DNA from: Escherichia coli
GTDB lineage: Bacteria > Pseudomonadota > Gammaproteobacteria > Enterobacterales > Enterobacteriaceae
Assembly (NCBI RefSeq): GCF_030384885.1
Contig: NZ_CP128613.1
Reading direction: 5' to 3' (one strand)
DNA: 64,000 nt
Shown: positions 45,950-48,377 of the stretch, one piece after another
Position numbering within the stretch: the stretch's first letter is position 1
Layout of the letters: every line of letters starts with the position of its first letter
The notes under the pieces: model-generated
The model's input: the letters and a program-made list of their open reading frames with translations, nothing else
The model's database searches: none
Told to the model about the DNA's origin: nothing
Made by a program: the position numbers and the translations under genes

Positions 45950-48370
45950 AACATTAATGAATGGGAAGAGTCACCTTATATTGTAAATTATTCCAAAATT
46001 TTTCCGCATCTTGAGGCTGAGGAATATACCTCTGAATTCTTGTTTGATCGGTCTCCGCAAAACATGAAAGTAATGTAACCTCAAGACTTCTATCATTAAT
46101 ATAAGCAAAGATCATTTTTGCAAATTCGTAAATAAATGCCCGATCCTGAGCGCTTAATAGCTTAATACAATATTTATTCTTTAGAGAGTAAAGGATTTCA
46201 ATGAAAGCATCCGCTGCAACCTTTACGTTATTCCCAACGGTCATATTAAATATATCCCTTACACAGATAGAGTACAGTGATAGTAAACAACCATACAAAT
46301 AATCATTTATTAATTCTTTTGTCCATTTTACTGGTAACCATGGTTTTATCTTGACATCATGCATACTACACTCATGAAAAAGACATTTATAGAGATTAAC
46401 TCTTATCATATCAACACTGTAAAAATGGCAATGGACAAATTTTGAAGAATGAGCATTTACATTATTAATTTTAGTCGCTCTAAACGTAAAGTTACTGAAT
46501 ACGTTTTTCGTTAAATTACTATTTGTTATCTTAACATCACCTAAACTGCCGTTCTCAAAACAACATCCCTTCAATATACTTTCATTTACAAGAGAATGTG
46601 ATAAATACAGATGATTTAAGTTTTTCTTCATTAAACCCACAGCATCAAAATGACTATATTTAATAAAACAACCATCATTGAGTAGCGTTTTTAGATTGAC
46701 TAAATTACTATCATGTTCACGTGCCATAGTTGTGATAGGGGTTGGAAGAGACATGAAAACCTCTTCATTGACCATCAAGTGAATCATGCATTGCTTGCCT
46801 TTTGTCATATCCACACTTACACTACAAATATCGTTGTAATGCGATGAATACATTTCCGGACACAGATTCAATACAATATTTTGAAAGGAGTAAAATCGTG
46901 TTAATACTTCCGAATAAGTAATTGGATTAAACTTAAGATCGTCATTAGCAAAACCAAGTGTTATTGTATGTTCTACATTTAGGTCAGGTTCAGGTGAGTC
47001 TTCAAGAGCAATATCATCACTGAAAATTTCACCTGATGTATTATCACTGTTACAAAAGGTGCTCATCAATGCAATGGTATTTATAACGGACTCTTTGTCG
47101 ATATCCTCACTCATTGTATATCGCCTGCTATAATCATAGAAATGAATAAATGCGTCTTTTATAATTGTTATATATTGTTCCTTATTAAATACAATTCGAT
47201 TGTATACTTTTTCAAAGATCGCATTCGCAATCTTACAACCAAGGGTATACCTATATAACAATGGATAAGAATCAATAGTAAAATTCTTCTCCAATTCACA
47301 TTGCAGTTTATTTTCGTAATGCAGAGGAAAAAGAAATTCTTGTCTTTCCATTTTTCCGCTGACTTTATTTCGCACCCCAATGGTGATTCTTTCATTGCCA
47401 ATTTTTATTTCAACTTCATTGTTTTGTGATGTACCAAGGTATGTTTTAGTACCAGTTTCGAAAGCACTACTAAAAAAAGAATTAAAATAATTATTTGCTG
47501 AATAAATAATGTTACCGAGCGACATATCATTTTTAATAGTTTCACTATCAGCATTTATTGCTAATACTAGATTCAAGTAGATGGTGTCCCATGTAGATAA
47601 CTCATCCTTATGACTGGATTTTAATATGGTAAAAAATTCCCTCAGCGAGGCCATGAGATTATCACTTTGATTCGGTTGTGTGCTTAGAAATGATGACGAT
47701 TGTTCAGAGACATTATTTATCATATAAAAATCACCCAAAAAAAACGATAACCCACTGTACTCCCTGTGCTTTATAAACATAAAGTCACAACACATTCTAT
47801 ATTCATATTAATTAATGGCGCATTAAAAAAAATTATATTATTCTTAACTCAAATCCATTAGCTAAATAAGATTATATTCTTCACTCACAACCGTAACAAT
47901 AATAATATTATCGAAAGTTAAAGTTGGGACTATCAAATTTCGCTCATTTCAAACATACATTGTGATTTTTGCAATCATCTTAATCTTAGGGCCTATCATC
48001 ATATGTTAAAATTTTGTCAATCATAGAAAAGAATCTTGGTCACCTATCATGCGTTATAAATGTGCAACTGGCTTCCTGCAGATGCTCTTAACTTCTACAG
48101 CAGGATTTATACCAGCGTTTCAGAACTATCATATTTACCTTAAATGATCATTTCAGTCTTATAACACGCTCAGCCTCACAAATGGTTTACACTGTCTATT
48201 GTTTGGGTAATTTAAGTAAGTCAGCTACGATCAACCTTGAATGGGGAGCCAGCAATGGACTTAAGCCTAATCGGGTCTTCAGATTGTTTCAGAATTGTAT
48301 AAAAAACAATGTATTAAATAATCTGATTGTTTTTGGTCATAGTGTGACGCAGAAAGCAAGCCAATAAGGA
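45950..48370. other. AT-rich accessory insertion (candidate horizontally acquired islet) between ybjQ and ybjP
   Basis: Hand count of a sample 60-bp stretch inside the ORF gives about 30 percent GC, and the whole region looks similarly AT-rich against roughly 50 percent flanks; single large ORF; no integrase, transposase or tRNA; boundaries approximate. Confidence 0.75.
45954..47723 (-). CDS. Hypothetical pentapeptide-repeat protein (Ser/Asn/Gln-rich N-terminus, central domain of unknown function, about 24 pentapeptide repeats, C-terminal tail); candidate effector-like or DNA-mimic protein
   Basis: ORF track 45954..47795 (613 aa); preferred start ATG 47723 (MINNVSEQSSSFLSTQPNQ...) preceded by GGGTGA 7 nt upstream, 589 aa; AT-rich codon usage; repeat tract at aa 365-485 of the ORF-track protein. 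Confidence 0.8.
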   Translation of the reverse strand: MINNVSEQSSSFLSTQPNQSDNLMASLREFFTILKSSHKDELSTWDTIYLNLVLAINADSETIKNDMSLGNIIYSANNYFNSFFSSAFETGTKTYLGTSQNNEVEIKIGNERITIGVRNKVSGKMERQEFLFPLHYENKLQCELEKNFTIDSYPLLYRYTLGCKIANAIFEKVYNRIVFNKEQYITIIKDAFIHFYDYSRRYTMSEDIDKESVINTIALMSTFCNSDNTSGEIFSDDIALEDSPEPDLNVEHTITLGFANDDLKFNPITYSEVLTRFYSFQNIVLNLCPEMYSSHYNDICSVSVDMTKGKQCMIHLMVNEEVFMSLPTPITTMAREHDSNLVNLKTLLNDGCFIKYSHFDAVGLMKKNLNHLYLSHSLVNESILKGCCFENGSLGDVKITNSNLTKNVFSNFTFRATKINNVNAHSSKFVHCHFYSVDMIRVNLYKCLFHECSMHDVKIKPWLPVKWTKELINDYLYGCLLSLYSICVRDIFNMTVGNNVKVAADAFIEILYSLKNKYCIKLLSAQDRAFIYEFAKMIFAYINDRSLEVTLLSCFAETDQTRIQRYIPQPQDAEKFWNNLQYKVTLPIH

Positions 48371-48377
48371 AATGATT

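Follow-up and report, generated by a model that had tools for sequence, protein, structure and literature searches.

An acquired AT-rich island removes the conserved ybjP promoter and probably supplies its replacement in about one fifth of Escherichia coli genomes

We analyze a 582-bp AT-rich, unannotated stretch (47796-48377) that lies directly upstream of the lipoprotein gene ybjP in a 64-kb stretch of Escherichia coli chromosome (hereafter, "the window"; coordinates are window positions unless indicated otherwise). The stretch is the right non-coding arm of a ~2.56-kb AT-rich accessory insertion (~45802-48363), referred to here as the island, which separates ybjP from its neighbour ybjQ. 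The insertion removed two parts of the RpoS-dependent ybjP promoter described in K-12, its -10 box and its -56 start site, and published transcription start sites from an island-bearing strain fall within the inserted DNA. We assign a probability of about 0.75 to the reading that the island took away a conserved ybjP promoter and that ybjP is now transcribed from starts in the island itself.

Background

The lipoprotein YbjP was recently found to bind TolC 3:3 within the AcrAB-TolC efflux pump, and it is expressed in an RpoS-dependent manner in K-12 (10.1101/2025.03.19.644130, 10.1101/2025.10.29.685381). This role as a TolC partner lends the case practical weight. A deeply conserved ybjP promoter has been lost from about one fifth of sequenced E. 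coli, a group that includes O157:H7 and strains of Shigella sonnei and S. flexneri; these would carry a ybjP leader three to four times longer, derived from unrelated island DNA. Because the promoter is replaced in about one fifth of E. coli, K-12 data on the timing and amount of YbjP may not transfer to island-bearing pathogens.

The swapping of a core promoter by an acquired AT-rich island is a known kind of regulatory rewiring, and this locus is a compact natural case of an acquired island furnishing promoters for both flanking core genes. We found no description of the ybjP island case in the literature; the transcription start site study used below (PMC10469882) records the shifted starts only as a numerical discrepancy.

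Results

Loss of the ancestral ybjP promoter

While ybjQ and ybjP are nearly universal, megablast found the 2.5 kb between them in only 1,123 of 5,426 complete E. coli genomes. The 582 bp alone were present in 1,128 of the same genomes (~21%), always at the island locus and never annotated. The ybjQ-ybjP spacer of K-12-type and B2-type strains is 125 bp. Outgroups were sampled as one genome per bacterial species with YbjP, which gave 80 loci. In most of these ~80 Enterobacteriaceae species representatives, ybjQ and ybjP are divergently oriented with ~100-130 bp between them (E. albertii, a cryptic Escherichia species, Salmonella, Citrobacter, Enterobacter, Lelliottia, Kosakonia and Cedecea, among others), and no representative shows a trace of the pentapeptide-repeat gene of the island or of the small open reading frame (ORF) in its right arm. 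As the short spacer recurs across the outgroups and the island is absent from them, the short arrangement is ancestral, which bears out an earlier sequence-based note on this DNA (hereafter, the original prediction) in its claim that the stretch is acquired. The features that define the exchange are as follows.

45421-45744, minus strand: ybjQ
45745-45801: retained ybjQ-side part of the ancestral spacer (~57 nt), from alignment with the K-12-type, B2-type, E. albertii, Salmonella and Citrobacter spacers
45954-47795, minus strand: pentapeptide-repeat ORF, 613 aa
47796-48377: AT-rich stretch, unannotated
48364-48377, plus strand: the sole clearly ancestral sequence before ybjP, ATAAGGAAATGATT, with the Shine-Dalgarno sequence AAGGAA at 48366-48371, from the junction alignment
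48378-48893, plus strand: ybjP, DUF3828 lipoprotein (NCBIfam PRK10533)

The spacer alignment places the left island junction at ~45801/45802, and the junction alignment indicates that ~50 bp of ancestral spacer were exchanged for ~2,560 bp. The -46 to -17 segment was tried as a homologue of the K-12 spacer and rejected, since 16% of shuffles score at least as high.

Primer extension placed the ybjP start of K-12 at -56 (Lacour and Landini 2004), and high-throughput mapping put it at -55 (both tabulated in PMC2760140). In the K-12 spacer this start is the G of TTGAAAGG, and the -10 box is TATTAT preceded by GC, which is a sigma-S-type arrangement. The TATTAT box starts exactly where the island sequence starts: K-12 reads CTGATACGC followed by TATTAT, and the window reads CTGATATGCC followed by ATGTTG. 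The upstream (-35) side of the ancestral promoter persists in 45745-45801, now 2.5 kb from ybjP.

The core of this promoter, GCTATTATTGAAAGGATAT, is found with at most 4 mismatches 40-70 nt upstream of ybjP in ~50 species representatives and is conserved in Escherichia, Salmonella, Citrobacter, Enterobacter, Lelliottia and Trabulsiella. Three of five Citrobacter loci with other insertions at this site (L015, L016 and L021) keep it beside ybjP. By comparison, a search allowing up to 5 mismatches did not find it in window positions 45000-49000, nor did one allowing up to 4 mismatches find it in seven island-bearing loci (L001, L003, L005-L009). The -56 start and the -10 box were thus lost at the left junction, and the native ybjP upstream region has been replaced, as the original prediction held.

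New ybjP start sites in island DNA

Published Cappable-seq data are available for EDL933, an island-bearing O157:H7 strain, under eight conditions in triplicate (PMC10469882 Table S5); we use them as presence or absence of a start site per condition. ybjP is EDL933_RS04960 in this strain, with its start codon at 1032835, and EDL933 positions were carried over to the window, there being no indels between the two in this part. Three ybjP starts are reported there.

1033012 (-177; window 48201): exponential LB, M9 and salt; stationary salt
1033014 (-179; window 48199): stationary LB and acid
1033043 (-208; window 48170): exponential salt; stationary M9 and salt

All three map within the sub-block 48050-48377, which is conserved between island haplotypes (see below), and they show that island DNA hosts new ybjP starts in a strain that carries the insertion. 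The source study gives its comparison with K-12 as "56 versus 177, 179, 208; difference 121"; the insertion, and not imprecise mapping, explains this 121-nt difference. YbjP is detected in O157:H7 proteomes and is abundant in O157, so ybjP is expressed in island-bearing strains. The elements around these starts are listed here.

48050-48181, plus strand: conserved non-coding block with TTTACC (48134-48139), a palindrome (48142-48153), TATAAC (48160-48165) and the -208 start (48170)
48182-48367, plus strand: small ORF, 61 aa (60 aa in the common haplotype), whose TAA stop overlaps the ybjP Shine-Dalgarno sequence
48188-48201, plus strand: -10-like TACACT (48188-48193) and the main ybjP starts (48199 and 48201), seen in six of eight EDL933 conditions and located inside the small ORF
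48279-48326, plus strand: nearly invariant 48-nt hairpin block in the ybjP leader (-12.9 kcal/mol, z = -2.6)

The island occurs as two haplotypes: the window type in ~19 genomes (at least 96% identity) and a common type in ~1,105 (84-86%), the latter including O157:H7. The sequence from TACACT through the -177/-179 sites is identical in both, and TATAAC and the -208 start base are also kept; we therefore infer that the window's own strain uses the same ybjP starts. The suggestion that the acquisition may have rewired ybjP is supported by the comparative data together with the EDL933 starts inside the island, and we infer that ybjP regulation differs from that of K-12.

In the mechanism we propose, an insertion would have landed in the compact 125-bp divergent ybjQ-ybjP promoter region and replaced ~50 bp of it. 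The left ~250 bp of the stretch (26% GC, fast-diverging) would most likely serve as promoter and leader of the pentapeptide gene, apparently silent in culture, and the right ~330 bp (37% GC, conserved) as promoter and long leader of ybjP. Transcription of ybjP would start at ~48199/48201 via TACACT and, in salt or stationary conditions, also at ~48170 via TATAAC, giving a leader of 177-208 nt where K-12 has 56 nt; the left end of the island would likewise supply a substitute ybjQ promoter. The original prediction had taken the whole stretch as the leader of the island gene, a description that suits the left ~250 bp but not the right ~330 bp, which serves ybjP.

The new promoter drives the same gene as K-12 ybjPp1, and its TACACT resembles the sigma-S-favoured TATACT-type box. 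It differs in being unrelated in sequence, in its 177-208-nt rather than 56-nt leader, in lacking a C at -13, and in that its starts are detected in exponential as well as stationary cultures.

Two side observations concern the -208 promoter. Between its -35-like and -10-like boxes lies AAATGATCATTT (48142-48153), a perfect 12-bp palindrome with a central Dam GATC, for which we estimate, roughly, ~0.3-0.4 chance occurrences of a 12-bp palindrome in 580 bp. It is invariant in 12 of 13 alleles and could be an operator or a methylation-sensitive site. The exception is L009 (strain 23CRST013), where an ISVsa5 insertion at about window position 48166, in the -10 region of the -208 promoter, removes the palindrome and leaves the -177/-179 promoter intact.

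Uneven conservation of the stretch

The two haplotypes have diverged very unevenly along the island, as measured by identity, by synonymous divergence (dS) or by the ratio of non-synonymous to synonymous divergence (dN/dS).

Pentapeptide gene: dS 0.59, dN/dS 0.25
47796-48049: 76% identical
48050-48181: 92.4% identical (10 of 132 sites differ)
Small ORF: dS 0.29
ybjP: dS 0.15

Had 48050-48181 evolved at the synonymous rate of ybjP, ~18 differences would be expected in place of the 10 observed (P = 0.027); the rates of the segments beside it would predict ~32 (P < 1e-6). This deficit fits constraint on promoter or regulatory sequence there. The fast-diverging left sub-region (47796-48049, minus strand, 26.4% GC) is the probable promoter and leader of the pentapeptide gene. 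Conservation within it is found at 47897-47947, and the best conserved minus-strand candidate promoter consists of a -35 box TTGATA (47936-47931), an 18-nt spacer and a -10 box GATAAT (47912-47907).

Several points weigh against reading the right part as a replacement ybjP promoter. The start-site data come from the common haplotype (EDL933), and the window carries the rarer one. Promoter scoring found only weak plus-strand promoters, none of which passed the consensus scan. The Cappable-seq study assigned starts only up to 250 nt upstream of a gene, so more distal ybjP starts would be missed. Relative to ybjP synonymous sites the block is conserved to a modestly greater degree, as the P value of 0.027 above indicates, and part of the conservation in the right block may stem from a recombination breakpoint near 48050 instead of selection.

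The small ORF as an alternative

The alternative that survives best holds that 48050-48377 is mainly a small-protein gene, co-transcribed from -208 and translationally coupled to ybjP, so that its conservation is coding; we consider this somewhat unlikely. The 61-aa ORF is intact in 13 of 13 alleles of both haplotypes, between which there are 9 synonymous and 6 non-synonymous differences (dN/dS 0.15; binomial P ~0.001 for at least 9 of 15 synonymous, a test based on the ~15 substitutions that separate the two haplotypes). No synonymous skew is seen in the other five frames, all of them closed. The -208 start lies 12 nt upstream of the ATG, the TAA overlaps the ybjP Shine-Dalgarno sequence, and the ORF was once annotated in EDL933 as EDL933_RS04965 (in the annotation of the Cappable-seq paper; it has been dropped from the present RefSeq record) and several records call it as a protein.

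Set against this, the ATG is preceded by CAGCCTCACAA, a 12-nt leader without a Shine-Dalgarno sequence, and the main -177/-179 starts, those of six of the eight conditions, lie inside the ORF and thus exclude its ATG from those transcripts. Ribosome profiling of Sakai yielded 465 translated novel small ORFs, and the ORF is neither one of these nor listed in the EDL933 translatome supplements, although the tested conditions may not induce it. A word-indexed search returned homologues only in E. coli and Shigella, with none credible beyond them; AlphaFold gives an uninformative model (predicted local distance difference test, pLDDT, of 50); codon 50 is polymorphic (V, A or T); and the non-coding block upstream is conserved equally or better. 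The original prediction was right that the ORF is present and lacks a Shine-Dalgarno sequence, and conservation turns out to be better than it had implied. That the ORF is a small gene is possible but unproven. The full version of this proposal, namely a genuine E. coli-specific small-protein gene that came in with the island and is served by the -208 start in salt and stationary conditions, with translation coupled to that of YbjP, strikes us as unlikely. If it were true, the small ORF would sit on a nearly leaderless bicistronic mRNA with its stop codon overlapping the ybjP ribosome-binding site, and would add a strain-specific control layer, or a partner protein, to the TolC-YbjP outer-membrane complex.

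Two further candidates were rejected. An exhaustive phmmer search with the small ORF gave only weak matches, spread over multiple stretches, to unrelated repeat proteins (He_PIG, FG-GAP, fn3, Laminin_G_3), which were judged spurious, and a 32-aa ORF at 48049-48147 (MRYKCATGF...) has ACG in place of its ATG in the common haplotype.

Remaining alternatives

It is decidedly unlikely, in our judgement, that the stretch is inert filler of a decaying island, with a breakpoint near 48050 parting a deeply diverged cargo segment from a younger flank and so explaining the conservation, and with ybjP transcribed from fortuitous AT-rich sites. Decay and recombination are both visible at this locus: the cargo gene is a pseudogene or disrupted by insertion sequences (IS) in many strains and split in EDL933, dS between haplotypes is far higher in that gene than in ybjP (0.59 vs 0.15), and one allele (L005) is a visible recombinant with a crossover at ~48230. 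AT-rich DNA also readily gives promoter-like hexamers, and our promoter scan returned 20 promoter-like sites vs 15.4 expected. However, 48050-48181 exceeds the flanking synonymous sites in conservation, the start sites recur across conditions and triplicates, the -10 boxes and start positions are the same in both haplotypes, and YbjP is abundant in O157.

That the stretch is instead the ancestral, universal ybjP promoter, with K-12-type strains carrying a deletion, is practically untenable: nothing beyond the shared Shine-Dalgarno region favours it, and it is refuted by the outgroup comparison (a short spacer in most of the ~80 outgroups, the promoter core traceable out to Enterobacter and Trabulsiella), by the 32% GC of the island vs 50.6%, and by the presence of the stretch in only 21% of E. 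coli.

The ybjQ side of the island

The left end of the island carries one further feature relevant to promoter replacement.

45826-45853, minus strand: island-borne, near-consensus ybjQ promoter, TTGACA-16-TAAACT, from the promoter scan

The EDL933 ybjQ start site lies at -78 (PMC10469882), 5 nt after the island TAAACT box, and its window equivalent is ~45821. The K-12 ybjQ start (-76) was also inside the exchanged segment. Since the ybjP starts lie in the right arm and the -78 ybjQ start follows the left-end promoter, the island gives outward-facing promoters to both of its neighbours.

Promoter displacement by acquired or mobile DNA offers the closest likeness: foreign AT-rich DNA sits in a core spacer, the native promoter is lost, and both flanking genes start in the insert. 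Here, however, a target of ~50 bp was replaced and not merely interrupted, and the adjoining start of ybjP is divergent too. The island also differs from a classic out-reading IS promoter in that it has no integrase or transposase, terminal repeat or target duplication, its only long ORF being the pentapeptide gene; a search for flanking repeats, direct or inverted, of the kind that mark a mobile element found none.

Composition and boundaries

The locus is 100% identical to that of strain 2013C-4282 (NZ_CP027579.1), and the genes outside the ybjQ-ybjP interval are as follows.

ybjS, plus strand: first gene in the local order, before amiD
44594-45424, minus strand: amiD
artPIQM: downstream of ybjP

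At 32.3% GC against 50.6% for the 64-kb window, the stretch is as AT-rich as the original prediction described. Segments of 582 bp that are equally AT-rich make up only 2.3% of the 64 kb, and all those with GC of 36% or less lie inside 45731-48440, that is, in the island. With the whole island at 32.5% and the island ORF alone at 32.0%, the stretch is AT-rich relative to the genome but not beyond the adjacent island gene. Its halves differ (26.4% in 47796-48049, 36.9% in 48050-48377). The A/T tract quoted in the original prediction corresponds to 47825-47845, and runs of at least 4 A or T bases number only 7 in the 582 bp.

The right edge of the stretch adjoins the ybjP ATG at 48378 (PGAP annotation of the 100%-identical record NZ_CP027579.1), as had been claimed. 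Its left edge is set by 47795, the furthest upstream ATG in the 613-aa ORF. The ATG at 47723, which would give 589 aa, is the more likely start of the pentapeptide gene; with that start, the non-coding stretch would be 47724-48377.

Curvature, H-NS and RNA features

The description of the stretch as a curved promoter did not hold up, as its wedge-model profile is not above that of shuffled sequence. With approximate wedge parameters, the mean bend of the stretch is 24.7 degrees per 63 bp vs 22.9 +/- 12.4 for the window, and its maximum (53 degrees at 47951) is exceeded by the maximum of 73% of shuffles. The high-affinity H-NS motif TCGATAAATT is not enriched, with one site at 2 mismatches (47905-47914). 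AT-richness alone still favours H-NS binding, and it is plausible that H-NS silences the AT-rich left part. The island resembles H-NS-silenced islands in its low GC (26-37% vs 50.6%), its patchy distribution, its effector-like cargo, its frequent decay and the lack of a cargo start in culture; it differs in its unexceptional curvature, in the lack of H-NS motif enrichment and in its actively transcribed right third.

Rfam (E-value mode, 45000-49500) gave no match in the stretch, and a terminator scan found none. The sole Rfam match was a sub-threshold hit to CRISPR-DR53 at 48923-48959 on the minus strand (25.9 bits vs a gathering score of 45); it lies in a GC-rich inverted repeat just after ybjP, most likely the hairpin of the ybjP terminator and not a CRISPR repeat.

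The ybjP leader as a whole folds no better than shuffles (z = -1.15), and in a five-allele alignment of the leader none of 62 predicted pairs showed a compensatory change. The hairpin block at 48279-48326 has one difference between haplotypes and is followed in the window haplotype by the U-rich run UUGUUUUU.

The pentapeptide-repeat cargo gene

The cargo gene is best described from its more likely start.

45954-47723, minus strand: pentapeptide-repeat gene, 589 aa from the ATG at 47723, with the ORF open up to 47795

Many annotated homologues also have 589 aa. The PGAP start, GTG at 47755, is out of frame with the gene because of an A8 tract (47737-47744) and carries the flag "frameshifted"; a close relative apparently has 6 A instead of 8, as deduced from its protein sequence. 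The pseudogene call of the window gene may thus be an artefact of start choice, with an intact 589-aa ORF from 47723. No gene-associated start site was recorded for the gene in EDL933 under the 8 conditions (PMC10469882 Table S5), which is compatible with silencing and is not proof of it. In L006 and L007 the gene is interrupted by IS1 and ISKpn26.

On the basis of its protein sequence, the cargo appears distantly like the EspX effectors, that is, an effector-like pentapeptide protein. Pentapeptide repeats in the C-terminal half are followed by a P-x-(K/R)-W-T-x-x-L-(I/V)-N motif, as in the EspX family. Sakai EspX1 aligns at 22% identity over 155 aa (pairwise E = 0.001) with the same domain order, and a homologue carries the name "putative type III effector" in one database source. 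The resemblance is very distant, and the locus is not any of the named EspX1-7 loci; identification as EspX2 (ECs0876) or EspX3' (ECs4654/4655) was rejected, as this locus is ECs0949/0950. The Pfam Pentapeptide_4 match (E = 1e-6, 29 bits) is below the gathering threshold of 38, and a search of solved structures for the pentapeptide protein returned none.

Spread of the island and variation at the locus

The island had no match in a phage collection, and a plasmid collection yielded three matches, in records of 0.7-4.9 Mb, at least two of them chromosome-sized. Island-bearing strains also diverge in the first ~12 codons of ybjP (MRYRSLSLL vs MRYSKLTML). This divergent gene start suggests that the island spread within a recombining haplotype and not by site-specific insertion, and that the whole haplotype may have been imported by homologous recombination.

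ybjP, the gene of the TolC partner, shows a deep allelic dimorphism of its own. Over its 5' half (48378-48650), the first ~270 bp are ~75-80% identical between K-12-type alleles and island-bearing or B2-type alleles. Whole-gene dS between those alleles is 0.66-0.69; in the art genes downstream, O157 and K-12 share ~98-100% identity.

The ybjQ-ybjP spacer looks like a recurrent insertion hot spot. Unrelated cargo occupies the same spacer in Citrobacter spp. (L014-L016, L021 and L027), namely a cspA-like gene with a small ORF rich in Cys, a phosphatase or phytase resembling AppA and a QnrB-like pentapeptide-repeat gene of 214 aa (L016, 2803-3447). Within the E. coli island, L094 (strain MFDS1022581) has a 13-bp deletion near window position 48046 and, at the equivalent of 48360-48372, a 13-bp tandem duplication (GCCAATAAGGAAA) that doubles the ybjP Shine-Dalgarno region.

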